Below, piece after piece: positions 644 to 60,900 of a stretch of 64,000 nt of DNA. How positions within the stretch are numbered: position 1 is the stretch's first letter; every line of letters starts with the position of its first letter. The notes under the pieces were generated by a model, which had not been told where the DNA came from, did no database searches, and saw only the letters and a list, made by a program, of their open reading frames with translations. The translations under genes and the position numbers were made by a program. Source of the DNA: Escherichia phage EC100; the sequence record NC_105587.1; one strand, 5' to 3'.

Positions 644-719
644 TGGTACACCCACTAGGACTTGAACCTAGAACCCTCCGCTTAAGAGGCGGTAGCTCTA
701 ACCATTGAGCTATGGATGT
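644..719 (-). tRNA. tRNA-Lys (anticodon CUU)
   Basis: Minus-strand cloverleaf: 7-bp acceptor stem (ACATCCA/TGGGTGT), D-stem GCTC/GAGC, anticodon loop CTCTTAA, T-arm CTAGG-TTCAAGT-CCTAG, encoded 3' CCA. Confidence 0.7.
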
Positions 720-896
720 ATTAAATTACTTTTTCCAGTTCATCAGCTATGGCTTTGATTTTTTCAAAGTTTACATCACTAATAATGATACCTTCCAGTG
801 ATAGAGATATTCTAGCATTTTTCGTAGCAGATTCTTTTATCTGCTCTATATCTTCTGGAGTAAACTCTCTACGTTCCATAGCTAACCTACCTTATT

Positions 897-973
897 TGGC
901 GCGACCGATGGGATTTGAACCCACATTCCCTCCCGTGACAGGGGAGTACCATTACCAAGCCAGCCCCGGTCGC
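897..973 (-). tRNA. tRNA-Asp (anticodon GUC)
   Basis: Perfect 7-bp acceptor stem GCGACCG/CGGTCGC, anticodon stem CTCCC/GGGAG with loop CTGTCAC, T-loop TTCAAAT, encoded CCA. Confidence 0.75.
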
Positions 974-982
974 ATAATTCAT

Positions 983-1168
983 TTACTCAGCTTTGAGTTT
1001 TTCAATAGCTGCATTAAGTTCTTTAAGAAACTCTTTTCGTACATTAAGACGGTTGAGACTTACTAGTATATCATGTTTAAGTTCTTCGATGTATTTCTTC
1101 TCAACTTCAATATTGTTGATAGTGCTATCACGATGAACTTCTAGCTGCGCAATTACATTCTTGGACAT
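983..1168 (-). CDS. hypothetical small coiled-coil protein (61 aa)
   Basis: ATG start preceded by GAGGAA ribosome-binding site; sits between tRNA genes. Confidence 0.4.
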   Translation of the reverse strand: MSKNVIAQLEVHRDSTINNIEVEKKYIEELKHDILVSLNRLNVRKEFLKELNAAIEKLKAE

Positions 1169-1270
1169 GCTTGTTTCCTCAGTTATTAATGAAAATGGTA
1201 TCTGTGGCTGGATTCGATGTCAGCAATGATAGCTGGTTGGCTACCGGTTTACTTAACTCTACACAGAATT

Positions 1271-1353
1271 TGGCGGGCCGTGTAGGATTCGAACCTACGT
1301 TGTCTTTCGACATGGATTAACAGTCCACCGCCAAACCGCTTGGCTAACGACCC
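1271..1353 (-). tRNA. tRNA with anticodon GUU (Asn-type) but a 13-nt variable arm
   Basis: Acceptor GGGTCGT/ACGGCCC, D-stem GCCA/TGGC, anticodon stem GTGGA/TCCAT, loop CTGTTAA, extra arm GTC-GAAA-GAC, T-arm GTAGG-TTCGAAT-CCTAC, CCA. 83 nt. Confidence 0.5.
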
Positions 1354-1505
1354 TGAATTTGTATTGCTGACTAGGATTTTCACCTAGACGGAGTTAGCAC
1401 CGTAGCGTGTAGCGGCATACCTCTCCAAACCGTGCCTCATCTTTCAATTACGGAGACAGTGTTCCTACGCGTGCCTGAATTGATTTAACAATTCTTTCAG
1501 CAAAT

Positions 1506-1581
1506 TGGACGACCGCATGAGATTTGAACTCACATAAAAAGGATTTGCAATCCTTCGCCTAAGCCATTCAGCCAACGGTCG
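1506..1581 (-). tRNA. tRNA-Cys (anticodon GCA)
   Basis: Acceptor CGACCGT/GCGGTCG, anticodon stem AAGGA/TCCTT with loop TTGCAAA, T-arm GTGAG-TTCAAAT-CTCAT, encoded CCA. Confidence 0.7.
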
Positions 1582-1650
1582 GTTTATCTTGTTCTGTCAT
1601 GTTGCTTCTCCAGTTCAATTTATGTAATTATTATACAGAACTTTTGGAAA

Positions 1651-1923
1651 CTAAGCAACTACATTTTTTAAGAATTTGATGCCTTTCTTTTTCTTCTTAT
1701 ATTTCCACGTTAATGGATTCTGTCGATTATGAACGCTTGAGATCTTTGTCTCGTCAAAGTTCTTCAATACCATGTAATCACAAGATAATTGTTTTAATGG
1801 AATGTGATCACCGTCAAAAGCGTATACATAAGGCTGTTGACTAGCACGATAATGATAGACTTTGTTAATTCTACGTTTCAGCAACTTATCCGCGCAGTAA
1901 ATAAAGAAGTTTTCAGGATGCAT
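1651..1923 (-). CDS. hypothetical protein (about 90 aa)
   Basis: Track ORF 1651..1938; internal ATG at 1923 has a GAGGGAG ribosome-binding site, so the start was moved there. Confidence 0.4.
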   Translation of the reverse strand: MHPENFFIYCADKLLKRRINKVYHYRASQQPYVYAFDGDHIPLKQLSCDYMVLKNFDETKISSVHNRQNPLTWKYKKKKKGIKFLKNVVA

Positions 1924-1940
1924 CAGCAGCTCCCTCAATT

Positions 1941-2015
1941 TGGTGCACCCTGTTCGTATCGAACGAACCTCTCAAGCTCTTCAGGCAAGCGCTAATCCAT
2001 CTCAGCTAAAGGTGC
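1941..2015 (-). tRNA. tRNA-like element, anticodon arm not resolvable (possible pseudo-tRNA)
   Basis: Good acceptor stem (GCACCTT/AGGGTGC), T-arm GTTCG-TTCGATA-CGAAC and 3' CCA, but no clean 5-bp anticodon stem could be folded by hand. Confidence 0.3.
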
Positions 2016-2101
2016 AAATTTTGGCAGGGGTAAAGGTATTCGAAACCTTTTCATGGGTTTTGGAGGCCCATTTGCAACCTATGCGTACCCCAATTATTAA
2101 T

Positions 2102-2176
2102 TGGCACACCCAACGAGGATCGAACTCGTGTTCCCACTGTGAAAGAGTGGTGTCCTAACCGCTAGACGATAGGTGC
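2102..2176 (-). tRNA. tRNA-Glu (anticodon UUC)
   Basis: Acceptor GCACCTA/TGGGTGT (two G-U pairs), anticodon stem CCACT/AGTGG with loop CTTTCAC, T-arm ACGAG-TTCGATC-CTCGT, CCA. Confidence 0.65.
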
Positions 2177-2183
2177 ATTAAAT

Positions 2184-2271
2184 TGGTGGGCGTTAATGGA
2201 GTCGAACCACTCGAGTCGCAATGACCAGGGATTTACAATCCCCTCCGCTACCACTTACGGAATAAACGCCC
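2184..2271 (-). tRNA. tRNA-Tyr (anticodon GUA), long variable arm
   Basis: Acceptor GGGCGTT/AACGCCC, anticodon stem GGGGA/TCCCC with loop TTGTAAA, long extra arm, T-loop TTCGACT, CCA. 88 nt. Confidence 0.7.
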
Positions 2272-2352
2272 ATATTTAGAAGTATTCAAATACTAGTTTA
2301 AACACTTTTAAATATGTTTCCAAATTAGATAACTATTATATCAAGTTTTAAG

Positions 2353-2391
2353 GCACTGAGCAAGTAAGATTTTGAAGAACTTGCTCAGTGC
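2353..2391 (-). terminator. stem-loop with 13-bp perfect stem, downstream of 2400..2675
   Basis: GCACTGAGCAAGT ... ACTTGCTCAGTGC inverted repeat; flanking U-tract weak, so possibly a processing or stability element. Confidence 0.4.
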
Positions 2392-2399
2392 TGTATTAG

Positions 2400-2675
2400 T
2401 TAGTCGAACTTAGGAGTGACAGATAAGGAGAACGGAAGTTCAAAAACTTCTTCACCCTCATTACTAACGGTAACTACACGACCTTTAAGTTCAGACATTG
2501 AAATATCAATATCAGCTTTTGCATCTGGAGACATGCCAGCTTCAACACATTTAGCTTTAACTTCCGGAAGGAGTTCTACATCGTAGAAATAAAGCCATTC
2601 AATCTCACCTTCCCAGCCTTCCCAGGATTTACAGATTGCACTTTCAATACCAGTTGCTATAACACGATTTTGCAT
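2400..2675 (-). CDS. hypothetical protein (91 aa)
   Basis: ATG start with GAAGGAG ribosome-binding site; followed by a 13-bp-stem hairpin. Confidence 0.45.
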   Translation of the reverse strand: MQNRVIATGIESAICKSWEGWEGEIEWLYFYDVELLPEVKAKCVEAGMSPDAKADIDISMSELKGRVVTVSNEGEEVFELPFSLSVTPKFD

Positions 2676-2765
2676 TCGTTAACTCCTTCATCAATTTATA
2701 TAACTATTATACCAGAAATTTAAAGCAAAAGGCAAGTACATTTTTAAAAATTCTGTTCGGAGGAG

Positions 2766-2972
2766 CTAAACTCCAGATTCTTCTGCCAAGTCTAGACTAA
2801 TAAGAGTTATAGCCATAATTGCTGCACCGTGTTCTTTTTCTCCGGTGTTTTTAGCAGAGTCTATAATAGTCTTAATCTGTTCGTAATAGCCTTTTACTTC
2901 TTGTTCAATACCTGCCTCGGCTATCATGCCTTTAGTCATGATTCGTTGCATAGTAATTTCACGGTTAGCCAT
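2766..2972 (-). CDS. hypothetical protein (68 aa)
   Basis: ATG-initiated ORF; its start overlaps the stop of a possible unlisted upstream small ORF (about 2965..3132). Confidence 0.4.
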   Translation of the reverse strand: MANREITMQRIMTKGMIAEAGIEQEVKGYYEQIKTIIDSAKNTGEKEHGAAIMAITLISLDLAEESGV

Positions 2973-3161
2973 GTTGTTTCTCCAGCTTCATTTTTAATAG
3001 TTTACAAATGAAATCAACGTCTTCATCTGTACCTAGATCTCTATCTTCAAGGGTTGCCTTGAAATTTTTCGTTAGTTCCATAAGAATAACTTCCCTAGAA
3101 CGACGTGTTGGCGGAGGTGGATGTCTATACATCTTAATTCCTTAACTTGGTAGGGGTTATA

Positions 3162-3845
3162 TCATCTATTTTTCTTAATACTTTTAGGATCTTTCCCTGT
3201 TAGGGACTTATACCTTTTCCTTAATCCAGTATCAGACAATCCTAGTTCTTTGGAGGCACGAATCCAGGAATATTTAGATACCCAGTACTCTATTTGCTCC
3301 ACAGTAATATCTGGATTTATAGTTATCTCTTTAGGAGTACATGATTTACAGTGTGTTGCTCTTGAGCTAATTTCGCAGTGACAAATAGCACACGTATTTA
3401 CAGTCCTTTCTGTATACCTGCCAATATTTTTGCCTGCATGAGTAGGTGTTAGTGCATGGCAATTTGGGCATAGGAAGGCTAAGTTATCCCATTCATTATT
3501 ATAGTGATTTCCATCCTTGTGTTCAAGTTCTAAAGGAATTGGTTTATCTAACCAACTTTCTAAGCCACAACTCTCACATTTATGTGGTTTTAGCCCCTCG
3601 TTAAGAATTTTATTCTTTAGTTTATAGGAAGAAATAGGGCTGCCGTTATATAAATACTCTGTTGCAGACTTATATTTATTATCATACTGCCTATTCGCAG
3701 GAATAACTACTATTCCTAGTTTTCCTAAATATGCTTCCAAAGTGTTCGAGGAGCAGGATAGCATTCTTGCTATCTCTGCTTTAGATTTTCCCTGAGCTAT
3801 CCACTGAGCTATTTCTTCCTTTCTATCTAGTATATCAGTTCTCAT
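3162..3845 (-). CDS. HNH homing endonuclease with N-terminal helix-turn-helix domain
   Basis: HNH motif region HKCESCG...ELEHKDGNHYNNEWDNLAFLCPNCH plus further Cys/His clusters; weak ribosome-binding site; located inside the tRNA island. Confidence 0.7.
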   Translation of the reverse strand: MRTDILDRKEEIAQWIAQGKSKAEIARMLSCSSNTLEAYLGKLGIVVIPANRQYDNKYKSATEYLYNGSPISSYKLKNKILNEGLKPHKCESCGLESWLDKPIPLELEHKDGNHYNNEWDNLAFLCPNCHALTPTHAGKNIGRYTERTVNTCAICHCEISSRATHCKSCTPKEITINPDITVEQIEYWVSKYSWIRASKELGLSDTGLRKRYKSLTGKDPKSIKKNR

Positions 3846-3868
3846 AGTTTATGACTTTATAATTAAGT

Positions 3869-3946
3869 TGGTGGCTCCCCGAGGATTCGAACCTACGTAC
3901 CTTCCGGTTATGAGCCGGGTGCTCATACCATATGAGCTTGAGAACC
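3869..3946 (-). tRNA. tRNA with anticodon CAU (Met or Ile2-type)
   Basis: Acceptor GGTTCTC/GGGAGCC, D-stem GCTC/GAGC, anticodon loop CTCATAA on a CCGG stem, T-loop TTCGAAT, CCA. T-stem pairs only partially. Confidence 0.5.
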
Positions 3947-3952
3947 AAAATC

Positions 3953-4041
3953 TGGCGGAAGAAGTGGGAATCGAACCCACAAGGCTATATTTCAAACCGA
4001 CAGATTAGCAATCTGCTGCAATACCGTTATGCTATTCTTCC
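3953..4041 (-). tRNA. tRNA-Ser (anticodon GCU), long variable arm
   Basis: Perfect acceptor GGAAGAA/TTCTTCC, anticodon stem GCAGA/TCTGT with loop TTGCTAA, long extra arm, T-arm GTGGG-TTCGATT-CCCAC, CCA. Confidence 0.7.
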
Positions 4042-4062
4042 GAATTTATAAGATATATTATA

Positions 4063-4581
4063 TTAGAAATTTAGCTTCATAGCAAGAAAATTTTTCAAGT
4101 TTTCGGTAGACATCTCATCCACATCTACAGGAGAAACAAATCCATTTAATTTTCTAGCAAATTTTTCACCCGCAGGATCGTTGTCCCCGACAGCTACCAA
4201 TTTAAAAGGTAATAATTTCAGTTGCTTTAATAAGGCTTTTCCTGGAGAAGAACCCAACATTGCCAGGGCTGGATAACCAGCGTTATGTAACGCAACTGCC
4301 TTAAATACAGATTCAGCAATCAATACTACTTTTTCATCTCCATTGAGAGTTTCTAGTCCCCATACACACTGTGTAGTAGAATAGGTAAAATATTTAGCTT
4401 CAAAGGGGCACTTACCATGCCCTTTTGGAGCAGAAGGATTATAAGTCTGATAGCCTCTCAACATCCCAGAGAAGTCATACAACGGGACTGTTAGCCATCC
4501 TTCTGGACTTAACCAGCAATGATATTTATCTGTATCAAATCCCCTAGATAAGAGGTGCTGTGTTAGCTCATCAACATTCAT
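4063..4581 (-). CDS. Toprim-domain protein (primase-like catalytic core without zinc ribbon)
   Basis: Toprim signature VVLIAESVFKA (Glu) ... LVAVGDNDPAG (DxD); start moved to the ATG at 4581, which has a GAGAGAGGAA ribosome-binding site. Confidence 0.5.
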   Translation of the reverse strand: MNVDELTQHLLSRGFDTDKYHCWLSPEGWLTVPLYDFSGMLRGYQTYNPSAPKGHGKCPFEAKYFTYSTTQCVWGLETLNGDEKVVLIAESVFKAVALHNAGYPALAMLGSSPGKALLKQLKLLPFKLVAVGDNDPAGEKFARKLNGFVSPVDVDEMSTENLKNFLAMKLNF

Positions 4582-4756
4582 ATTTGGTTCCTCTCTCAAA
4601 TTTATAGATATATTATACAGAGAATTTAGCATTCAAGCAATCAAATTTTTTAACTTTTTAGAGGAAAATCATAGGGCACTTAAGGGTAGCAGATAAGTGG
4701 TGAGGACCAAAATTTGTGACCCCACTAAAAATCCGGGGGCAATTTTTAAAGACCCC

Positions 4757-4785
4757 TTGACATTTTCGCTGGGGTAGTGTAAAGT
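4757..4785 (+). promoter_or_regulatory. sigma70-type promoter (TTGACA, 17 bp, TAAAGT) for the plus-strand low-complexity module
   Basis: TTGACATTTTCGC -35 core shared with the element at 32904; 60 nt upstream of the GGAGG ribosome-binding site. Confidence 0.45.
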
Positions 4786-4848
4786 ATATGTTATGGATGA
4801 GTGATCAAAGAGACACACATTTTCTGTATACTAGGAGGTGTCAAAAAA

Positions 4849-5840
4849 TGACAGAAGAAGTAGCTAAGAGTCCTGAGACCGTCGCTAGCGTTGCGGCAGA
4901 ACTGCACCGTCACGAGGAATCAGATAAGAAAAAGTGGGAGAAGGTCAGAGCCTACGAAGAAAAACATCGTGAACACGATGATGAAGACGATGAAGATGAC
5001 GATGATGAACATTGTCATAAATATGGAAAACATAAAATGCAAGAACCAGTAAACGTATTTACTAATGGCTTCCCTGGCCTACTAGGTGGTTACCCAGCAA
5101 ACGTAGGTGCTTTCGGTGGTGAAGGTATGGGACTATTCGGAGCTATCCTAATCGGCGCTCTATTAACAGGCGGATTCGGTGGTTTCGGTGGATTCGGTGG
5201 ACGTGGTGTTGTTGGTGAAGGTACCGCAGTTGATGCAGTACTTCAGAACCAAGATACCGCTAGTATTCTAGCAGCTATCAACACTACTCGTACAGAAGCT
5301 AACCAGGGTACCGGAGCTGTTTTAAGCGCAGTTAACAATGGTTTTAGCCAGACATCCCAAAACCAGAGCCGTGATACTCAGTCTGTATTAACTACGATCT
5401 ATGGTACAGGTGCTAATCTGTCTAATCAGATCTGCCAGGAAACCCGCAACGTTATTCAGGGTCAGTTCGATCTTTCTCGCCAGATTGATCAATCTTTCGC
5501 AGCTAACCAGATAGCTCGTGCACAAGATAAATTTGATTCTGCACAGATAGCTTTCCAGCAGACTTTACAAACTAATAACCAGTTTGCCGCTGTTCAGGCT
5601 CAGATGTGTGCTAACCAGAACTCTCTGGAACGTCAGATCGCTGAATGTTGCTGTGAACTTCAGACTGCGATCGCTGGTGTAACTACTGCGCGTATCCAGG
5701 ATGAGTTAGATGCATGTCGCCTACGTGAAGCAATCGCTGCGGGTAGCGGTGCTAACGGTCAGGTAATTAATCAAATCGCTTTAAGTCTTGGTGCTATCAC
5801 TCAGACTCTGGCTGGTCTGCAGGCTAAACTGCCGGCTTAA
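4849..5840 (+). CDS. low-complexity protein: acidic N-terminus, Gly-zipper hydrophobic segment, Q/N/T-rich Cys-containing C-terminus
   Basis: GGAGG ribosome-binding site 9 nt upstream of the ATG at 4849; acidic run DDEDDEDDDDE, GLFGAILIGALLTGGFGGFGGFGG, roughly 200 aa Q/N/A/T-rich tail with CCC. Confidence 0.55.
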
Positions 5841-5861
5841 TATTAAGGGGAGGAGCCCATT

Positions 5862-6275
5862 ATGAGTAAATATGGTTTTGTAAATAACGGACTTAATCAA
5901 AGTATGGGCTCCCAGCAGCCCATTCCGGGTCTGGATAACCCCTACTTACAACAGTTGCAACAGCGTTTAGCAGAAGCGCAACAGATGCAGCAACAACTCC
6001 AGCAAAACCCTGGAAGTGTGAGTCCTATGCAAATGATGCAGCAAATGAGCGGGCAGTCGCAAATGCCTCAACAAATGCAGCAACAGATGCCGCAGCAAGT
6101 TCAGCAACAAACCCAACAACCGCAGGTTTCTGCGGAAGGACAGGCAGTACTAGCCCTTTTCGAAGACTTCGCAAAGACAGAGGATGGGAAACAGCTTGTA
6201 TCACTTATGGGTAAGTTTAATAGCTTCTGCCAAAGCCAAATTGCAAAAGCTCAAAATAGCGGTAATAACTCCTAA
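5862..6275 (+). CDS. glutamine-rich protein (137 aa)
   Basis: GGAGG ribosome-binding site; QQLQQRLAEAQQMQQQLQQ...QQMQQQMPQQVQQQTQQPQ; codon usage of highly expressed genes. Confidence 0.55.
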   Translation: MSKYGFVNNGLNQSMGSQQPIPGLDNPYLQQLQQRLAEAQQMQQQLQQNPGSVSPMQMMQQMSGQSQMPQQMQQQMPQQVQQQTQQPQVSAEGQAVLALFEDFAKTEDGKQLVSLMGKFNSFCQSQIAKAQNSGNNS

Positions 6276-6284
6276 GGAGGGATT

Positions 6285-6479
6285 ATGTGTTGCAGAAAAT
6301 CTGTTTCGTGCTGCCCAATGCCTGTAGCACGTTGTTGCTCTCCAGCAATGTTTACGCAAATACCGGCGTTCAATCCGTTTGCCTTTAAGCCTACTCTTAT
6401 CCTGCCCCCTAGAGTAGATTTTCAGTCAAGATTGGCCTCCCGTATGGGTGGTTGCTGTAATAAGAGTATATGGTTCTGA
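6285..6479 (+). CDS. cysteine-rich small protein with four vicinal CC pairs (64 aa)
   Basis: AGGAGG ribosome-binding site; MCCRKSVSCCPMPVARCCSP...GGCCNK; followed by an intrinsic terminator. Confidence 0.45.
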   Translation: MCCRKSVSCCPMPVARCCSPAMFTQIPAFNPFAFKPTLILPPRVDFQSRLASRMGGCCNKSIWF

Positions 6480-6495
6480 AGAACCAAACAATAAA

Positions 6496-6529
6496 GCCCC
6501 TAGTCGAAAGACTTAGGGGCTTTTCTTTT
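6496..6529 (+). terminator. intrinsic terminator ending the plus-strand low-complexity module
   Basis: GCCCCTAGTC-GAAA-GACTTAGGGGC hairpin followed by TTTTCTTTT. Confidence 0.75.
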
Positions 6530-6540
6530 ATCTTAAATAC

Positions 6541-6574
6541 AGAAAAGCCCTGCGCTCTCCAGGAAACGCAGGGC
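6541..6574 (-). terminator. intrinsic terminator after the SPFH gene
   Basis: GCCCTGCG ... CGCAGGGC hairpin with a U-tract on the minus strand; convergent with the 6496 terminator. Confidence 0.65.
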
Positions 6575-6599
6575 TTACTTCAGATGTTACATGCGGGTA

Positions 6600-7547
6600 T
6601 TATTTATTACGCATATCCATAATCATTTGGCCATCATAGCCAGTGCCAACCACAGTCTGCGGTACACCACCCTGATACTTCTGAGCACGAATCATTTCAA
6701 CTTCCAGTTGCTTCCAGCGAATCATCTCAGGAGTAATGGTACGTTGCAGTGCGGCGTTAGCTTCAGCTTCTTTCTTAGCTGCGTACAGTTTAGCATCTGC
6801 ATCACGTTCATTAGCAATAGCTTGGTTGTTGCGAGCTTCACGATCTGCTTCTGCTTGTTTAACTTTTTGCTGTGCTTCCTGTTCAACACGAGCTAATTCA
6901 GCTTTAGCAGCATTAACCTGTTCTTCACGAACTTTGGTATTCTGTACCTGTTCCATGATTACCGGTGGCAAAGTAATATCCTGAAGGAACACCTGCTTAA
7001 CTGTGTAACCATATGGGCGTGCATACTCTTCAACTTCCTGTTGAATTGCAGTTTGCAATTGAGCCTGAATTTTAGCATCAAACAAATCTTGTGCTTTAGG
7101 CACAGACTTACCAAACTCACGAATAGTAGACAATAATTTTTCAGTTACATATTTGTCTAACGCTTGATCCTGAGTACCTGCATTAATACGGTTAATCGGT
7201 GCCTTAGAACCATCAAATTGCAACATAACAGTCAAGTCAACAGTGGATTTAAACTTATCCTGACTAGGAACCTGAAGTTTATCTAATTTTACAGCAATAT
7301 CTTTTGTACTAAAAGTATCGAAAGATGCAAACGGGTTTACAAGATGGAAACCAGGTAATACTGGGTTAGGATCTACTTTACCCAGAAATGTTTGGGTTTT
7401 AACCGTACCATCAGAAACAATAGTATATGAATTAAAAGCTAGGATTAAACCTGCTAAACCAACTACAGCACCAATACCCCAACGTTTAATAGTACGAATT
7501 ACTTTCTGCTCAGAAGTCAGTTCTTTCATATTTTTAGTATTAAACAT
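6600..7547 (-). CDS. SPFH/band-7 (HflC/prohibitin-like) membrane protein
   Basis: N-terminal transmembrane helix (WGIGAVVGLAGLILAF), SPFH-like core, C-terminal Ala/Glu/Gln-rich coiled coil; ATG with AGGA ribosome-binding site. Confidence 0.65.
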   Translation of the reverse strand: MFNTKNMKELTSEQKVIRTIKRWGIGAVVGLAGLILAFNSYTIVSDGTVKTQTFLGKVDPNPVLPGFHLVNPFASFDTFSTKDIAVKLDKLQVPSQDKFKSTVDLTVMLQFDGSKAPINRINAGTQDQALDKYVTEKLLSTIREFGKSVPKAQDLFDAKIQAQLQTAIQQEVEEYARPYGYTVKQVFLQDITLPPVIMEQVQNTKVREEQVNAAKAELARVEQEAQQKVKQAEADREARNNQAIANERDADAKLYAAKKEAEANAALQRTITPEMIRWKQLEVEMIRAQKYQGGVPQTVVGTGYDGQMIMDMRNK

Positions 7548-7581
7548 ATATTTCCTTTGTTTTAGTTACAGTTAATAAAGT

Positions 7582-7656
7582 TGGCCGAGGTGACAGGATT
7601 CGAACCTGCATAAAGGAATTTAGAAGACTCCTGCCTCTCCCTTAGACTACACCCCG
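7582..7656 (-). tRNA. tRNA-Arg (anticodon UCU)
   Basis: Acceptor CGGGGTG/CACCTCG, anticodon stem GGAGT/ATTCC with loop CTTCTAA, T-arm GCAGG-TTCGAAT-CCTGT, CCA. Confidence 0.7.
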
Positions 7657-8157
7657 TTTAAGTATTTTTAAGAACTCTCGTAAAAACTCTTAAAAATACA
7701 GACGATACCGGGAGAGTCATAAGTCTCACTCATTAAGTATTTCAAGACAAAATACAGTAACGTCTATTATTTTCCAGTTTAAGTCAAGGTGACTTAGTGG
7801 TTATGTCCTGCGGTATATTGAGGACTCGGTTAGGTTAGGGTCATGACTCCCCACCTTTTTGCTGCTACTCAACAGGAGTTATCGCGAATTACCTGTGCTA
7901 TTGTGCACCATTAGTGGCATCTCTCATGCCAGCATTTCCCACTTTATGTATAGCTTGAAAAACTACTCCGATATGGAGGAAAAACTTCACTATCTAGAAT
8001 ACCTTCTAAAGTTCTTCTTTAGCCTGGACATAGTTAAATCGTAATAAAACTATTCAGCAGACTGGTTGGTTAGTCTGGAACCAACTACCGCGTGGTTTAG
8101 GCAGTGCGCAACTAACCTCGGAAGCTTTTACGTTAAAAGCATCAGTTATCCAGTTCT

Positions 8158-8229
8158 TACCGACCGTAGGATTCGAACCTACATCTTCCACCAGTTACGG
8201 CTTGATAATACCAATTATACTAGGACGGC
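8158..8229 (-). tRNA. tRNA-like element (degenerate, possible pseudo-tRNA)
   Basis: T-arm GTAGG-TTCGAAT-CCTAC identical to the one in the 1271-1353 tRNA, acceptor stem with one mismatch, no clean anticodon stem, no CCA. Confidence 0.25.
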
Positions 8230-24437: not shown

Positions 24438-24606
24438 ATCTGTGTATACACATCCCGATGATATATTTGTATGGGCGGATGGTAGTTGGTGTTATCGATG
24501 TGAGCTATGGGAAATGGACTATAAATCCGATGACTATGGTGTCATATATGTTGATACGGCTGAGTATGATACGTTCTTAGAAAGGAACAAAAATGGAAAT
24601 AAGTAA
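24424..24606 (+). CDS. hypothetical small protein
   Basis: Track ORF 24397..24606; ATG at 24424 chosen; overlaps the Sir2 3' end. Confidence 0.3.
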   Translation: MSIVKSVYTHPDDIFVWADGSWCYRCELWEMDYKSDDYGVIYVDTAEYDTFLERNKNGNK

Positions 24607-25099
24607 TACTCCAATTATTTTTCTAGACATTGATGGGGTGCTTAATTCGAGCATCTCCCACCATCATGCACCTGATGATGAAAAGATTTTCTTTGGAAGT
24701 GACTGGGTTTTTAAACCACTTCTCAAGGCTTTTCAGGACTTTATTCGTCCTTCTCCAATAATGATTGTTGGGGTATCTTCATGGTTCTCTGTCAAGAATG
24801 AGATGGAGAACGTTCAGATTATGGCCGGATTAGATCTTATCGATCGTTTTCTTGGTACAACGGATTTTACTGGTGGTGGGCTATCTAGAGGTAATTCTGT
24901 TCTTCGCTTCGTTGAAAAGCATAAGCTCAAACATTGGTGTGTGCTGGATGACGCTGGTGCTATGATGTATCAGTATCCAACGGTTATAGTCAACGGTAGA
25001 ACTGGAATAAATCTTCAAGATTTAAGAGCTGTTAGCTATATGTTAGAATTTAGTCCAGATCTTGAAATGTGTAAAGCCCTACAACAATTTAAGGTGTAA
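24593..25099 (+). CDS. HAD-superfamily phosphatase-like protein (capless)
   Basis: HAD motif I FLDIDGVLN, motif II VGVSSW, Lys region KHKLKH, motif IV VLDDAG; 168 aa. Confidence 0.55.
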   Translation: MEISNTPIIFLDIDGVLNSSISHHHAPDDEKIFFGSDWVFKPLLKAFQDFIRPSPIMIVGVSSWFSVKNEMENVQIMAGLDLIDRFLGTTDFTGGGLSRGNSVLRFVEKHKLKHWCVLDDAGAMMYQYPTVIVNGRTGINLQDLRAVSYMLEFSPDLEMCKALQQFKV

Positions 25100-25101
25100 A
25101 T

Positions 25102-25530
25102 ATGTTCAATAATGTATTCTCTAAAGAAGCTAACCCAATATTGGTTAATTTTTGGCGTACTCTTCCAGACAACCTGTACAATGAGGCTATTAATGCTCTG
25201 AAAATATGGTGTGAGAATAATGAAATCTCCTTTGCTTTTAAAGGTGAGATTGAAGAAGCTCCCTGTATTGGTTTAATTGTGCAGGTAGAGGATGGCTTTG
25301 AAGAGATTGTCGGCTGGAAAGAGTTAGATGAAATGGGCTTGGTTTTTGCGTTAAACTATAAGCTGTTTATGCCTAATAAGCACCGTATTGTTGTTAACTA
25401 TAAAACCAGTGAATCTCCGGGCTTTCAAGTTAATGAACATTACGGTTGGTCTTACTCACCGGAAGAAGTAAATGATGGTATACAAAAACTTCGTCGTTTT
25501 GGTTATCAAATTCCGGGTTTAACCGCCTAA
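25102..25530 (+). CDS. hypothetical protein, paralog A of a tandem pair
   Basis: Shares SFAF..PCIG, W.EL..MGL..ALN..LF.P and W.Y.P...L.R.G...PGL blocks with the next ORF. Confidence 0.5.
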   Translation: MFNNVFSKEANPILVNFWRTLPDNLYNEAINALKIWCENNEISFAFKGEIEEAPCIGLIVQVEDGFEEIVGWKELDEMGLVFALNYKLFMPNKHRIVVNYKTSESPGFQVNEHYGWSYSPEEVNDGIQKLRRFGYQIPGLTA

Positions 25531-25540
25531 AGGGGGCACA

Positions 25541-25933
25541 ATGGAACAAGTATATTGGCGTCAGATTGATCCTAGTTTGGTGAAGCGTGCGGAGAAGCTG
25601 CTACAACGTTGGTTGGGGGTAAGACAAGCCTCCTTCACTTTTCCGGAGCAGCAAATAGACGATCCCTGTGTTGGTGTTTTCCTATCAGGCTACGCTAGGG
25701 AATGGGAATTGGATTGGAATGAATTGTCTGCTATGGGTTTAATTGTTGCACTAAATTTCTCTTTGTTCCATCCACGTGGTTTGGCCATATGTCGTGTGCC
25801 TGATGACGGTTGTTCGCCCCATCTTTTACAGGTGGAAGATGATATTTGGGAGTACACTCCAGATATTCTCAAAGAAGCCAAAGAACAATTAAACCGTGTT
25901 GGGATCTATGTTCCGGGGCTAAATGATAAATGA
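25541..25933 (+). CDS. hypothetical protein, paralog B of a tandem pair
   Basis: Collinear similarity to 25102..25530; AAGGGGG ribosome-binding site. Confidence 0.5.
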   Translation: MEQVYWRQIDPSLVKRAEKLLQRWLGVRQASFTFPEQQIDDPCVGVFLSGYAREWELDWNELSAMGLIVALNFSLFHPRGLAICRVPDDGCSPHLLQVEDDIWEYTPDILKEAKEQLNRVGIYVPGLNDK

Positions 25934-26550
25934 TTTTTATTAGTTGACCTCTGATTACCGAGTCATTTTGGCTCGGTTTTCTCTATGCTCAAAGACACTG
26001 ATAGCACCATCCGGAAAATTTTACTTGCAGGATGCCCAAAATCTTGATATAATATTTATATTGAATTGAGAGACATTAGTAAAAATTGATTTTGCTAATT
26101 TTTCTTGTTTACAATCCGCGATACGGAACAGTTAGGCTGCCCCATTAAGGGTTGTTTTAACTATTACTAGTGTTTATATTGCATTAGTTAATCTTCAATT
26201 AAGTGATCTGTGTACCCTGAATTCGGAAAGGTAAATCCAAACCGTGCATATTTAGCTCGTTATATAGGCAGAGTTTTATATGGGGGTGCGAACGAAAAGA
26301 GCAGCGAATGGCGGCACGTACAGTAGTCACCTACCAATAGGATAGTGAGGACAAATAGAATCGGCTTAGCGGCCAATGACCTAGGTTCTATTCTGTATAT
26401 GAGCGAAGAGAGCACAGCACTGAGATATGATAACTTATTCATATTGTTTGATGATAATTGATGTTTACGTAAATAGTAGTAATAGTTGTTCTATTCTTTC
26501 TGAATAGTCCTAAAGAAAAGATTTCGATTAACCAACACAGGAGTATTGTT

Positions 26551-28389
26551 GTGTTTTCTATCCTTCAAGGTCACGCCGGATTTTCTCGTGATTTAGCAAC
26601 AGGTATTTGGCGAGAAATCAAAGCGGAAGATTATACCTTTGCCAAGCGATTCTCGAAAGAGCATCCAGAAGGTAAACCAGCTTCTATGCCCTTCAAATTT
26701 GATGTAATAGAAGAGCACGACCCACAAAGCCTTGCCGAAATGTTACCCCTTATGAGACGTTTAACGTCTGACCCTCATATCGTTGCGGTACGAGGTCGAT
26801 GTCTTGCACCTAAAAATAATGTGCGACGTAAGAAAGGTAACTTTAATGTATCTAATCCTAGTAATATTATTGCTATGGACGTGGATGGTATCCTAGATAC
26901 CGGTGGGTACGACAAATTTAATCTTGTTGGTATGGCCCGCCACATTATTAAGATGTTGAATAGTATTAGTGAGGATATGTTTCCTCTTGATGCAGGCTTT
27001 ATAGCTCATGCATCATCTTCGGCTGGGCTAAAACCAGGTATCCGAATGCACTTAATGCTAGAATCTAACGTCAAGGTAACTCAGGGTCAGCTAAAGTTCT
27101 TATTTACATCTATCAACGATAGTAGTAAGCAAAAATTTGGTTTTGATATTGCCGACCTAGCTTATTATTCATCTGTCCAGCTCCACTATTTTGCCGACCC
27201 CTTATTTAGCGATGGTATTGTTGATCCGTTTAAAGCGGAGAGTAAGCCACGTCTGGTGTATGTTAAAGGTTCGAAAGTAAATTTGCCCAATAATCTAGTT
27301 GACTATGAAACAACTAGAGGGGAGTTTAAGGAAGAGTTTTATTCTTTACTTGATCAAATTAAAGGCAAAAAGATTGCTTCTGATAAAGTAGAAGAAACCA
27401 TCAGCGAGTTAGAAGAGGCTGATGATGGAGTGTATTTGCGTATTATCCCCAAACTATACCATAGAGCATTAGAGGATGGTGTTGATTTTGCATGGCTAGA
27501 ACGTGAGATTAAACCAGCTTTATCTGAATATATTGCAACTAAAGATAACAGTCGTAATATTCAAGATTACTTTAATAACGGTCGTAAGCAGGCTCTCAAA
27601 GCGTTTGTTAATAATTCTAAACGTGAGATTCCATTAAATCTGAAAGGTGTTCCACTTAAGAAATTAGAAGTGGATTCTCCACCAGAAGTTCCATACCTGA
27701 AGATTAATATTGTGCCCCCAAAAGGCCATATAACATTTGTTAAGGCAAGTCTTGGTACGGGTAAAACTACGGCAGTAACTAAATGGCTGGACGCAGGTGT
27801 TCTTCCGGGCAACTTTTTAGCAGTTACAAATACTAGAGCACTGGTATCTTCAAATGCCAAGAAATTTAGTGCAGGACAATACGATAAGTCTGTAGATATG
27901 CTCAACTTTAAGCGTGGAGCTATTGATCGTATGTCCACAACTATTCACTCTTTGCATAAGTTCAAAAGTTTTATTGGGCAAATAGACACCATTTTTATTG
28001 ATGAATGTGACGCTGTAATGAATGACCTATTATTCGCCCCTGTTGTTAAACAACGTCGTGAGTGTATTCAAGTTCTACGTGACATCCTCATGACAGCTAA
28101 GACTGTAATCTTATCCGATGGTGATATTAGTGCTGAGACGATTGAAGCATATGGTTCTCTAATTGATTTTGATAAACCGGTTGCATTTTATAATCATCAC
28201 CGTAAAATGCTGTCAAAAGCTCATGCTTATGAGTTCCCTGATGAGTCCAGTATTTGGGTTGCACTTCAGACTTCTCTAGAGATGGGTGAGAAATCTATTC
28301 TAGTATCTGATTGTGGCCCGGATGAGCTAAATGAGAAAGGTATGGCACTGCGTCGTAATACGGGTGCGTTAGTTAAGGAAATCCATTGA
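26551..28389 (+). CDS. P-loop NTPase / helicase-like protein, N-terminal part (ends at an in-frame TGA)
   Basis: GTG start with AGGAG ribosome-binding site; Walker A SLGTGKTT, Walker B IFIDECDAV; the frame stays open beyond TGA 28387-28389. Confidence 0.6.
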   Translation: MFSILQGHAGFSRDLATGIWREIKAEDYTFAKRFSKEHPEGKPASMPFKFDVIEEHDPQSLAEMLPLMRRLTSDPHIVAVRGRCLAPKNNVRRKKGNFNVSNPSNIIAMDVDGILDTGGYDKFNLVGMARHIIKMLNSISEDMFPLDAGFIAHASSSAGLKPGIRMHLMLESNVKVTQGQLKFLFTSINDSSKQKFGFDIADLAYYSSVQLHYFADPLFSDGIVDPFKAESKPRLVYVKGSKVNLPNNLVDYETTRGEFKEEFYSLLDQIKGKKIASDKVEETISELEEADDGVYLRIIPKLYHRALEDGVDFAWLEREIKPALSEYIATKDNSRNIQDYFNNGRKQALKAFVNNSKREIPLNLKGVPLKKLEVDSPPEVPYLKINIVPPKGHITFVKASLGTGKTTAVTKWLDAGVLPGNFLAVTNTRALVSSNAKKFSAGQYDKSVDMLNFKRGAIDRMSTTIHSLHKFKSFIGQIDTIFIDECDAVMNDLLFAPVVKQRRECIQVLRDILMTAKTVILSDGDISAETIEAYGSLIDFDKPVAFYNHHRKMLSKAHAYEFPDESSIWVALQTSLEMGEKSILVSDCGPDELNEKGMALRRNTGALVKEIH

Positions 28390-28404
28390 AACTCTACCTC
28401 AGAT

Positions 28405-29340
28405 GTGGATATTCGACGTATTCTGGATTACACAACTAATGAACTAATTGATCAACAAATTGATTGCTTATTATGTAGTCCATCCGTAACGAGTGGTGTT
28501 GACTTTAACTATTTTGATAACGTATTTGTGATTACTAGAACTAGTAATCAAGCGCCAAACATGCGTTTCCAAGCAATCAGGCGCGACCGTGGTGCTCAGA
28601 ATATCTATTATTTTATTGATAAATCCACTAGTGGATTCTCCGCAGGTTCTGAACAATATAATATTGATGAGGGTTGGCTGGAGTTAGCACAGCAATTATA
28701 TGCACGTCGCAGGGAGCTGGAATCTAGGAACTATACTAGTACTTTACGTTATTACTTGCTTGATCAGGGTGCAACTATTGATATTTTCAGTGAAAGCTGG
28801 GGAACTATTGAAGGTGCTGGTAAAGAGTACACAGAAGAGCGAATCAAAGCTATTCTGCACTCAACTCCTGATTATTGTGCTCCACGTCATGCGGATGCGT
28901 ATGAAGCTAAGCTACTTCTTGTTCGCTATTATCATCTCGAGTCTATTAAAGATGTAACAGTTGAGCATGTTGAACAATATATAAAAGATAAACCGAATGA
29001 TCGAGCTGCATTCTTCCATAAGATGCACGAGATGTTCTGGGAAGATATTAAGAAGTGTTCAAATGTGACCATTAAACCATTCATAGAGGCTCTGAAAGGT
29101 AAGAAGAAAGATTTCTTCCTTAAAACCGGTCAGAGTGCTAACCCAAAATATGCTAGAATGTATCTTGGCATGATGGGTATTGGTAAGGATATGAACACGG
29201 AGAATATCGTAGACTGGTACAGAACCTACTGTAAAATCGAGTGTATGCCAATTCCTTATAAATTCATGACTGACGAGGAAAAACATATGCACGATGAAGC
29301 AATGTCAGAGCTAGGTGCTAGAAATGACAGTGAAGAATAA
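28405..29340 (+). CDS. helicase-like protein, C-terminal continuation (same frame as 26551..28389)
   Basis: Same reading frame as the upstream ORF, five codons after its TGA; begins with helicase-like block LLCSPSVTSGVDFN. Confidence 0.5.
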   Translation: MDIRRILDYTTNELIDQQIDCLLCSPSVTSGVDFNYFDNVFVITRTSNQAPNMRFQAIRRDRGAQNIYYFIDKSTSGFSAGSEQYNIDEGWLELAQQLYARRRELESRNYTSTLRYYLLDQGATIDIFSESWGTIEGAGKEYTEERIKAILHSTPDYCAPRHADAYEAKLLLVRYYHLESIKDVTVEHVEQYIKDKPNDRAAFFHKMHEMFWEDIKKCSNVTIKPFIEALKGKKKDFFLKTGQSANPKYARMYLGMMGIGKDMNTENIVDWYRTYCKIECMPIPYKFMTDEEKHMHDEAMSELGARNDSEE

Positions 29341-57959: not shown

Positions 57960-60900
57960 GAATTTCCTAATGTTTTCAGACTAGCACCGTTCTCATTCAG
58001 AGCTAATTCTACTGCGTCTCTTAGAGCACTACTATTACTAGAAGCAAACTCTCTAAAACTTGCAGCATCCATAGCACTAATATTCAAGATGATAGGTCTT
58101 CCTGAAGTTGAGTTAGATGAGGTTTTTAACTCATCATTAGGTGTAGCTTTCATAGGAACCATAGGGGTAACTACTTCTGTACCATGCTCACCCATTTGAT
58201 AGCTAACCCCAGGGTACATATTACCACCCTCAGCACGAGGAACGAAAGAGTTAGCACCGCCTATGCCTTTATCGCCACGAATATAAGATAATTCACCAGC
58301 ATTAGCAGACATGGACACATCTATATTCTTCTGACGTTCTCCTAAGGTTAAATAACTAGTTGTATCCGCCCCAGAATCTGCAATAGAAGACATGCCAGAT
58401 GCAGAAGATGCTTGTGCTAACGCCAATGCACCCGCTAAACCTGCCGCAACCATTAAAGGAATAGAGAACGGGTATGGTACAGCTGTTGCCGCTTGCATTA
58501 CAGCTACTGCAGTTTGGATGATAATCTGCTTCTTAGCTGCGTCTTGTTGAATCTTCAGCTTTTCAGCTTCCAACTTCTTCAACTTAGCTTTAGATGCTTC
58601 TGATTTACCATCACGTTTCTGTTCTGCTGCAATAGCCTGATCAATTGCACTAACTTGTTGGCTAGTACTATATTGAATCATCGAGGCTACAGTCTGCATA
58701 CCAGAAGCAATCATAGACGTAGTATCTAGGGATCCCTGGGAGAACTGAATCATAGAGTTAGTTAAATTACCCATGCTTTGAGCTACAGCAGTTGCTTCGG
58801 AATTTAACTCAGATAGTTTAGAAATTGCTTGGTCATACGAAGACATCCTATTCTGCATATCAGCAAAATCTTTATCTGCTCCAGATAGGCCAGTTGTAGG
58901 AGTATAAGTAGCTCCAACAGAAGAACCTACCTGTTGCTGCATCTGAGCATTACGTTGTGCTGTTAAAGCTGACATCTGAGCCCTTGTCTTAGCTATTTCA
59001 GCATTCCAACGCATTTGCTCATTAGCGTTACCTTTGGTAAGTTCTTTCATCTGAGTATAAAAATCTAACTGCATTTCCATTTTTTGCATTTCCCCTGCCA
59101 GAGGGAACATGGAAGTTAGAGTATTTTCAAAGGCTTCTTGCCTTTTACTGGTCATTTCAGCTTGCTGGTTCTGACGGAATTTCCATATTTCACGTTCAAT
59201 TTGGGCTTGAGAACGTCTAGACTGTTCAGCCTCTTTCTGTTTGTCCGCTTGTTTTGTATACCATTCGTACTTCTCTTTTTCAATGGTCAATTCAAGATTT
59301 AACTGTGCTAGACGATACTGAGTATCTGTCATAGTACGGTTATTTAAGAGAGCTATCTCACGATCTACACCAAGAATTTTATCTGTGTAATCCTTGACCT
59401 TCTTCTGAGCTTCCATACCCTGATTGGTAAGTTTAAGTTTCTCCAGCTGAATTTTTTCAATTTCTTTCTCAACAGCTTTATTTCCCTGGTTTGTTTGAAG
59501 AACACGGCGTAAAGCAGCTTCTTGCTCTTCTAACTGTTGGAGTTCTAAACGCCTACCGGCTTCCTGTGCTTTTTCTTTATCCTTAGTTTGGTTATATACA
59601 TCAGCTATCTTCTGTTGAACTGCTAACTGATTTTTAGTTTCATTACCGGTTAGTTTAACATACTCAGATAAGGCCTGAGACGCAGTTTTCATTTCAGACA
59701 GAGTGTTATAGCCTAGGTTAAGATTTTTAACGTACTCATCTGCACTTTTACCAGTACCTAGAGATAGAGATTCTATATTTTTTATAGCATCTGCTAAAGT
59801 AGCACTAGTTTTAGCAGCAGTATCTGTATTCTGAGCAACGTTCTGTATGTCATTAGCTAAGTCACTAGCCGTTTTCTTAGTCTGATTGTACGCTTTCTGC
59901 TGCTCAGTTAGTCCTTTTAATACAGTAGAGTTAAAATCGTATACAGCATCAGGATCAGTAGTATCTCTCTGTAGATTAATCTGTTTCTGAAACTCTGGAT
60001 TAGCTTTTGCAGCAGCAGCACCCGCAGCTTGATAGGCTGACTTCCAAGCATTAAGGTTTTCAGTAGAATCTTCTACTTCCTTACCTAGTCTGGTTACTTG
60101 TAGACCCATAGCCGCAGTTTCTTCTACGAACTTTTTATTAGCTTCGGAAGCACCAGCAGCAGCAAGACCAACAGGAATACCTTCACCAACTTGACGTATG
60201 GCTAGTTTTGTATAGAAATCTGCTTGTTCCATTCGTTTGTCGAACTCAGATTTTAGCTTATTACGCTTATCAAGAGATTCCTTATACATATCTAGAGCTT
60301 TATTATAGCCTTCTTCAGAAGCAGCCAAACTTAAAGCAACAGCACCAACGTTGGTAGGATCTATCTGTCTATTAGTTTTTTCTTGCGCTCTAGCTGCCTC
60401 AGCAGATATCGAAGCCTGAGAAGTGTAGAATACAGTATTGATAGCATCAATTACTGGCCCTAAATACTTAGCAGCAGCCTGCTGAATCTTTCTCAGGGCG
60501 GCATCTGCATTAGCAGCAAATTGCTCCCATGGAGTTGCACGTAGTACTTCATCTAGGTAGCCAAACCTCTTAGTAGATTCAGCAATTACCGCGTTAGCGT
60601 ATGCTTGTTGTTTCTGGAAAGTGGTAAGACTATTAACATTATATGTTATACCTGTGTTTGCAGCATTTAACTGTTTAACATAATCGGCGTATGCGTCATT
60701 AAGACGGATGGTGACACCAAGTTCATCCAGAAGTTCGATTTCTTGTTTAGATACGCCCTTAATTACACGGTTAAGTGCATCAGTCATATCAACACCAAGA
60801 ACAGCAGCAGCACGACGAGCTACTAAACCAAATTTATTAAGTTGTTCGGCATCAAATCCATAAGCAGATGCTGAAGATGCCTGTCTCATTGCTTCCTCAA

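Follow-up and report, generated by a model that had tools for sequence, protein, structure and literature searches.

What does a T5-like phage keep in the longest stretch without a plus-strand gene in its plus-strand gene block, directly ahead of an essential early helicase? The window, by which we mean the whole 64,000-nucleotide stretch of Escherichia phage EC100 analysed here (NC_105587.1), comes from a T5-like phage, and the gap in question (positions 25934–26550) separates T5.107 from T5.108, the gene for the D2 bipolar helicase. An earlier note, made from the sequence alone, had singled out this gap as the longest in the plus-strand block, placed it between a paralog pair and a helicase-like gene, and proposed three roles for it: coding for a small RNA, forming a structured leader, or serving as an origin of replication or a factor-binding region. 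We find that it holds a structured leader RNA, unusually large and ornate, and comparison between phages strongly supports a conserved fold of the plus strand in the gap transcript. T5 is a classical model phage and its relatives are widely isolated for therapy and biocontrol; both the initiation of T5 replication and the control of D2 are poorly understood.

Results

The gap and its constraint in T5-like phages

When plus-strand stretches uncovered by any plus-strand open reading frame (ORF) of at least 50 aa were ranked over the block 21052–47000, the gap came first at 617 bp, as had been claimed, the next being 220 bp. The upstream paralogs proved to be two DUF7415 proteins; the gene downstream is homologous to that for the SF2 helicase D2 of T5 and weakly matches Herpes_ori_bp. 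The GC-richer segments mentioned in the earlier note correspond to 26270–26419 (47–50% GC) and are flanked by AT-rich stretches of 25–28% GC at 26030–26119 and 26420–26539. The gap is 100% identical to that of Escherichia phage T5_ev219 and four EC phages, 99% identical to T5 (coordinates 58928–59544 of 121750, or 48.4–48.9% of the genome), and matched at >80% identity in 522 phage records.

When nine T5-like gaps were aligned, three zones emerged. Almost no variation is seen in the terminator, the promoter and the initial ~100 nt of the transcript, the final ~90 nt are highly conserved, and the middle zone occurs in two very different versions of equal length with common short islands such as GGCTTAGCGGCC. 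Type A is carried by the window, T5, IrmaTschudi and TrudiGerster, and type B by Gostya9, saus111K and HASG4. Within type A (T5 itself set aside) the core is 89–93% identical to the window, whereas between types A and B identity is 40%; the central part of the gap is thus swapped for a distinct variant in other T5-like phages, and the type present tracks the D2 lineage, not the upstream gene. The 5′ domain (26060–26157) is 96–100% identical to the window in phages in which, in comparisons other than with T5, D2 codons 1–400 are 82–86% identical at the nucleotide level and D2 third codon positions just 65–70% identical.

Evidence for a conserved fold of the plus strand

The earlier note had suggested structure prediction as a check. 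Single-sequence folding of the plus-strand leader, which runs for ~490 nt from the promoter to the D2 start codon, gave −126.5 kcal/mol (z = −3.07), with none of 100 shuffled sequences as good, compared with −97 kcal/mol (z = −1.48, 9/100 shuffles as good) for the minus strand. The predicted plus-strand structure is a multi-helix architecture, and it is accompanied by covariation. RNAalifold, applied to types A and B separately, returned the same layout. In the type A alignment (16 sequences), 152 pairs were predicted with 99.8% of cells paired, and 13 of these pairs were compensatory, as against 0–1 in slid controls and with the observed value reached in 0/500 shuffles. The type B alignment yielded 157 pairs, six of them compensatory, including the change of CUGCG/CGCAG to CUACA/UGUAG in helix P4. 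Compensatory changes were found in P4, P8, P9 and other helices, and the core has at least six covarying helices. Compensatory pairing in excess of the controls and strand-specific stability, the properties by which a conserved structured RNA is recognized, are therefore both found in the leader.

To compare lineages whose sequences are unrelated, two approaches were used. For P5/P5b/P6, a sequence-only alignment of type B, DU_PP_V, My1 and the metagenomic L058 was combined with a hand-written structure; 12 of 20 pairs were compensatory and 96.2% of cells paired, with 0–4 compensatory pairs in the slid controls. In the P7–P9 half, MAFFT alignments across lineages misregistered the invariant motif and the 3′ strand of P4, and they were therefore excluded from the pair counts and replaced by an alignment-free duplex test in which the 5′ strand of each lineage was paired with its own (cognate) 3′ strand or with that of another lineage. 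The cognate partner of the long stalk P3 ranked first in 6/6 cases (mean −29.3 kcal/mol vs. −12.0 ± 3.4 for non-cognate strands), that of P8 in 7/8 (−11.1 vs. −5.6 kcal/mol) and that of P4 in 4/6 (−9.5 vs. −5.4 kcal/mol). Moreover, P3 measures 30–39 bp with a ΔG of −29 to −38 kcal/mol in nine unrelated sequences from six lineages, and the core from P4 to P9 spans 243–252 nt in six diverged lineages. Cumulatively, these comparisons show that the fold rather than the sequence is kept across the enterobacterial Demerecviridae.

Architecture of the leader

All elements described here lie on the plus strand. The transcript is predicted to begin with P1, a 5′-proximal two-tier hairpin (26068–26106) with a lower stem GAGAGA/UUUUCU and an upper stem UUAGUAAAA/UUUUGCUAA; its shape is predicted alike in seven lineages, the six others having a different sequence. 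P1 is followed by a near-invariant linker with a weak hairpin (26107–26157), which includes ACGGAACAGTTAGGCTGCC at 26123–26141, a motif that occurs once in the window and is recognisable in DU_PP_V, My1, IME260 and L058. The linker also carries the stretch ACGGAACAG. Next comes the 5′ strand of P3 (26158–26198), which pairs with 26448–26488 in a long-range helix of ~35 bp; the inverted repeats I1 and I2 are the arms of this stalk.

P3 closes a multi-helix core of 248 nt (26199–26446), itself closed by P4 (26202–26213 with 26412–26421). Within the core, P8 (26354–26362 with 26384–26392) encloses the hairpin GGC-UUAGCG-GCC (26363–26374), with GCTTAGCGG at 26364–26372. The UUAGCG hexaloop is invariant, and the 3-bp stem that closes it covaries (GGC/GCC, GAC/GUC, GCC/GGU, UGC/GCG). 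P9 (26424–26445) is a hairpin between P4 and the 3′ strand of the stalk; a GUUGCCA-type P9 loop is common to five lineages, and the type A loop differs. Beyond the core, a small hairpin and an A-rich spacer lead to the ribosome-binding site of D2. The conserved hairpin CUAUUC-UUUCU-GAAUAG (26491–26507), preceded by a conserved GUUCU, is not a terminator, because it has no U-tract; counterparts are present in IME260, DU_PP_V and L048. The Shine-Dalgarno sequence AGGAG (26539–26543) is followed by the GTG start at 26551 (together 26539–26553), which aligns with that of annotated T5.108/obp/D2. In a scan of 25400–27000, no plus-strand terminator-like site was found between the promoter and the D2 start.

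Some relatives carry an optional structured insertion of ~97 nt right after P1, at the position matching 26106 of the window, with a TTTTTCTT repeat at its flanks. It is found in Gostya9 (L005, 1627–2220), YZU-L1 (L014) and three further loci (L025, L032 and L047), in both types A and B, and elsewhere in the window it was not found. It may be part of the RNA, as an expansion segment, or else a small mobile insert.

Terminator and promoter

The leader is set apart from the upstream genes by an intrinsic terminator at 25957–25985 (plus strand), assigned to the T5.105–107 (HAD_SAK_2/DUF7415) unit. In the terminator scan its stem (25957–25977) has 9 pairs, ACCGAGTCA/TGGCTCGGT, five of them GC, begins 24 nt past the T5.107 stop and is followed by TTTTCTCT. 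A GC-rich stem-loop, a T-run and a position at a gene end are thus found together, the site is unchanged in nine relatives in the alignment, and the upstream operon is predicted to stop here.

An early-type sigma-70 promoter (26013–26059, plus strand) lies 25–30 nt beyond the terminator. The earlier note had reported TTGCAG (26025–26030) and TATAAT (26048–26053) with a 17-nt spacer, and this promoter is indeed present. Further, a TG at 26045–26046 (−15/−14) makes it an extended −10 element, TGaTATAAT (26045–26053); an A/T tract, GGAAAATTTTAC, precedes the −35 hexamer, AAAATTTTAC and TATAATATTT are the upstream and downstream flanks of the two hexamers, and the discriminator contains ATATT, the reported mark of T5 early promoters (PMC7472727). 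With the hexamers, the 17-nt spacing and the A/T-rich tract, the site has the sequence features of a T5 early sigma-70 promoter, and transcription is predicted to start at ~26060. A generic promoter scan missed it because the −35 hexamer agrees with TTGACA at only 3/6 positions. In T5 GenBank records the gap carries annotations for a rho-independent terminator and a ‘putative early promoter T5P32’ and nothing else. Hence these two signals were already known, and what is new is the structured RNA, which is unannotated in T5.

A weaker promoter-like site picked by the consensus scan (26086–26115, TTGATT-18-TACAAT, 9/12 matches) lies within P1 and the linker; it is conserved, which may merely reflect conservation of the RNA. 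Distant relatives retain TTGCAA-17-TATAAT or TTGACA-17-TATAAT. There are also cases of promoter turnover in which the leader is retained: a SHSML-45-like locus (L026, 1389–2003) has a tandem duplication of the promoter and P1, and in five loci (L016, L024, L035, L055 and L013) a different promoter, TTGCAAGGGAGTATTATTTTATAGTATAAT, is joined to the same leader. In the last of these, SP76, an additional ORF is inserted upstream. In L044 and L045, a second consensus promoter (TTGACA-17-TATAAT) follows the structured RNA of 764 nt and precedes the D2 start by ~40–70 nt, so that in this lineage RNA and D2 could be transcribed separately.

Distribution among Demerecviridae

Related loci were fetched through the D2 N-terminus. 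In every sampled enterobacterial Demerecviridae lineage, D2 is preceded by a promoter and a leader poor in ORFs; in 4/5 distant sequences, a terminator-like hairpin also stands ahead of the promoter. The leader measures 489–497 nt in T5-like phages, 484 nt in both Sugarlandvirus (IME260) and Hongcheonvirus DU_PP_V, 471 nt in My1, 522 nt in L058, 612–616 nt in the Priunavirus-like L048 and L049, and 764 nt in L044 and L045. CUUAGCGG is present in all the enterobacterial leaders tabulated, and L048 and L049 have the same plan of hairpin, stalk and core. The fold was recognised in T5-like types A and B, Sugarlandvirus, Hongcheonvirus, My1-like phages, Priunavirus and one metagenomic lineage.

The Vibrio phages Quinn, JSF12, D145 and PG07 and the Aeromonas phage TS3 (L097–L101) have 600–1600 nt before their D2 homolog, either without ORFs or with small annotated ORFs only. 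The leaders of Quinn and PG07 are highly structured by predicted fold, although homology to the T5 RNA could not be shown; three UUAGCGG-like motifs occur in TS3, and an internal stretch of ~55 nt is directly duplicated in PG07.

A covariance model of P5/P5b/P6 (R1) scored its own source sequences DU_PP_V and My1 at E = 6e-25 and E = 2e-22, respectively, and found nothing in the Vibrio and Aeromonas phages. Searches with a two-motif pattern beyond Demerecviridae returned only chance matches in coding sequence. With a three-motif pattern there were nine viral matches, seven of them on Demerecviridae contigs already fetched; the other two, on metagenomic contigs that were not themselves inspected (L223 and L227), had no R1 match. 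The same pattern gave 64 bacterial matches, no more than the ~130 expected by chance according to a hand estimate, and none was confirmed by R1. Within this limited search, the RNA was always found in the same position and orientation directly before D2 and nowhere else.

Known RNA families and rejected candidates

At the gathering threshold, Rfam 15 detected only tRNAs in the window. Relaxing the threshold to E ≤ 10 over 25800–26700 gave only three chance-level hits, and at E ≤ 1 nothing was found in the leaders of 12 related loci; the families not matched include riboswitches, ribozymes, group I and II introns, RNase P, tmRNA, 6S, GOLLD and ROOL. In the literature searched we found no description of the leader RNA and no T5 transcript map covering the gap. 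In most GenBank records, the region of the RNA is either blank or occupied by spurious ‘hypothetical proteins’; in total, the element goes unannotated or under such names in about 500 phage records.

Several candidate features were considered and rejected. By eye, AGAAUCGGCUUAGCGGCC resembles the CR-V region of RNase P; this idea was dropped, as none of the RNase P models gave a score and other lineages do not conserve the ACAGAA beside it. A kissing contact of the UUAGC loop with a GCUAA located within or behind P1 fails, since IME260 and L058 have no GCUAA. For the duplicated GTTCTATTCT, an alternative pairing is lost in type B and in IrmaTschudi-like phages, and a model in which the conserved 5′ linker sequesters the start region was not upheld across lineages.

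Discussion

A probable structured leader of the D2 mRNA

Of the three options in the earlier note, the structured leader has been borne out strongly, by the fold, by covariation and by the predicted read-through into D2, while the replication origin is disfavoured on sequence grounds. What the comparisons show is a fold at the RNA level, placed between an early-type promoter and the D2 start and held under strong purifying selection. Conservation above that of synonymous sites, constant size and cross-genus covariation are the marks of unusually complex functional RNAs. RNAs this large and intricate are few, and their functions are often unknown.

With respect to function, we suggest that the gap is a transcription-unit boundary followed by a structured 5′ leader that may act in cis on the D2 mRNA or in its processing, a reading to which we give about an even chance. 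Transcription would begin near 26060, with P1 shielding the 5′ end of the RNA. The P3 stalk would probably serve as an RNase III-type processing or folding platform, and a factor bound by the conserved core and its loops would set the level at which D2 mRNA is made, kept or translated; this factor could be a small ligand or a protein, either D2 or another early protein of the phage. Acting in this way, the leader RNA would control, in cis, the expression of an essential early helicase. If the RNA regulates D2 or cooperates with it, it would offer a direct experimental route to the timing of the highly productive DNA replication of T5.

Such a role has precedents. Like riboswitches, T-boxes, ribosomal-protein leaders and the operators of T4 genes 32 and 43, the D2 leader lies between promoter and ribosome-binding site on the same strand, and its covarying helices and invariant loops are conserved together with the downstream gene across a family. 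It differs from them in being much larger, 490 nt with a 250-nt core on a 35-bp stalk, and in having neither a recognisable expression platform nor an Rfam match. Processing stalks cut by RNase III include the stems flanking 16S and 23S rRNA, the R1–R5 sites of T7 early mRNA and the lambda N leader. P3 resembles these as a long-range, imperfect helix of 30–39 bp that brackets a structured RNA in an early transcript and is conserved as structure only. By analogy, P3 is long enough for an RNase III substrate, for which about 20 bp or more would be needed, and we propose that it may be cleaved.

A number of observations nevertheless weigh against control of D2 in cis. The predicted unpaired probability of the initiation region is 0.15–0.49, close to the leader average, and its occlusion is inconsistent across lineages; a predicted CGAUAC/GUAUUG pairing by the start codon of T5-like phages is lost in DU_PP_V, My1 and IME260. 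With a spacer of ~45 nt between the structure and the Shine-Dalgarno sequence, simple riboswitch-like occlusion is therefore not evident. R1, built from four lineages, is weak on IME260 (E = 0.39) and type A (E = 3.4), albeit at the expected place, and finds nothing in L044 or L048. The P5/P5b/P6 subdomain is therefore not conserved but lineage-variable, and R1 cannot serve as a detector of the family. Moreover, the size and complexity of the leader are beyond those of most protein-binding operators, the second promoter between RNA and D2 in L044 and L045 fits an RNA with a function of its own, and the transcript start is a predicted one. We go no further than an even chance because no conserved expression platform was found, the terminator scan and the accessibility prediction having revealed neither a terminator/antiterminator nor a conserved Shine-Dalgarno occlusion in the leader.

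A possible stand-alone RNA

In a second explanation, the gap encodes a stand-alone functional RNA of ~250–330 nt. It would be cut out at the P3 stalk, for instance by host RNase III in the manner of the rRNA and T7 early mRNA stems, and would act in trans as a ribozyme, as a component of a ribonucleoprotein or as a decoy that engages an enzyme or a defence of the host; D2 would merely be co-transcribed. A stalk of 30–39 bp kept only as structure in nine sequences from six lineages, a core of constant size, the invariant UUAGCG loop and the P9 loop that five lineages (type A not among them) have in common all count in favour of such an RNA. Its complexity is on a par with that of large ornate RNAs, the initiation region is not consistently sequestered, and L044 and L045 have a second promoter before D2. 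On the other side, there is no terminator past the core, so that a separate small RNA would require processing. The RNA always has the same position and orientation before D2 and was found nowhere else in the limited search, and the P5 subdomain varies between lineages. We regard this explanation as a serious possibility, although a clearly less probable one than a leader acting in cis.

The closest comparisons are GOLLD, ROOL, OLE, raiA and HEARO, which like the D2 leader are structured RNAs of several hundred nucleotides with many covarying helices, and of which GOLLD and ROOL are likewise associated with phages. Unlike them, the D2 leader matches no Rfam model, is fixed as the leader of one gene and, in the limited search, is confined to one phage family. 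More broadly, we hold it possible, if rather doubtful, that the element is either an excised ornate phage RNA, be it a ribozyme or a subunit or cofactor of a replication or host-takeover machine (perhaps with D2), or the pre-primer of a T5 origin. Whether free-standing or a primer, such an RNA would represent a new class and, if this were true, one that is conserved across all enterobacterial Demerecviridae and yet went unnoticed for decades in a classical model phage.

A possible replication origin

That the locus is a replication origin, the transcript from the early promoter serving as a structured pre-primer or forming an R-loop and the AT-rich flanks as unwinding elements, we consider unlikely. 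The idea draws on the neighbouring gene. The product of T5.108 (928 aa) has been characterised as the D2 bipolar SF2 helicase. Amber mutants in D2 fail to make DNA, and the ‘origin-binding’ label of the gene has as its sole basis a weak similarity of the helicase core to herpesvirus UL9 (PMC3632103). It also draws on a strong promoter, on the 25–28% GC stretches on either side of the GC-richer middle, on the conserved distance between promoter and gene and on the mid-genome position of the locus. In these respects, the strong promoter, the structured transcript of several hundred nucleotides, the neighbouring replication gene and the AT-rich DNA recall ColE1 RNA II, T4 ori(uvsY) and oriF and the T7 primary origin. 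These transcript-primed origins differ from the D2 leader, in which neither a promoter for an antisense regulator nor repeats are found: a scan showed no antisense promoter-like site, and there are no iterons, only two-copy repeats of 73–100% identity with irregular spacing, the sole notable ones being the arms of P3. DnaA-like 9-mers (≤2 mismatches) number 3, as against 2.6 ± 1.6 in shuffled sequences. Further, selection appears to act on plus-strand pairing that depends on G-U pairs, and not on duplex DNA. Independent data point the same way, since in a study of recombitrons the strand bias of T5 was consistent with dominant unidirectional replication from one genome end (PMC10055335), and an origin guessed from GC skew in a T5-like phage falls elsewhere (PMC5519627).

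Unlikely alternatives: a spacer or a hidden gene

It is very improbable that the gap is an ordinary spacer with a terminator and a promoter, its structure being a by-product of base composition or of the relatedness of the phages. These two signals would by themselves account for ~130 bp, and many of the sequences compared are closely related. The remaining 490 nt, however, are more conserved than the synonymous sites of the flanking genes and constant in length to within a few nucleotides, at least six lineages keep the helices although the sequences that form them are unrelated, and neither slid nor shuffled controls yield the signal; covariation and conservation already contradict this explanation. 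Least probable of all is a hidden gene for a small protein, as suggested by ORFs of 38–60 aa on both strands, by the ‘hypothetical proteins’ annotated here in some GenBank records and by a 60-aa TTG ORF in type B phages, since, in line with the absence of a credible ORF claimed in the earlier note, stops or frameshifts in close relatives break all of these ORFs except a 43-aa one on the minus strand that starts with GTG, none is kept in frame among relatives or common to types A and B, the TTG start of the type B ORF sits inside the invariant RNA 5′ domain, and that domain is also invariant at would-be synonymous positions.

Flanking genes and other features of the window

In the window, the D2 gene itself (26551–29340) is split by an in-frame TGA at 28387–28389 into ORFs of 612 and 311 aa. 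The TGA lies between helicase motifs II and V, where T5 has TCA (Ser), and the ORF is intact, with 925–938 codons, in 35/35 IMG/VR relatives. None of the 190 phage records that match 28340–28440 is identical to the window in this region, the best (99.0%) having one mismatch. Either the TGA is an error of sequencing, or this phage has a private nonsense mutation that may need suppression or read-through.

On the other side of the gap, the three genes at 24593–25933 encode the two DUF7415 paralogs and a HAD_SAK_2 protein; HAD_SAK_2 is the HAD domain found in RNA repair proteins of the ‘Swiss Army Knife’ type. This gives the neighbourhood a flavour of RNA repair, and the terminator separates these genes from the leader RNA. 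Finally, the minus strand at 644–8229 carries a cluster of 10 tRNA genes typical of T5-like phages; ARAGORN counts nine and Rfam 10, and the two sets are partly different.

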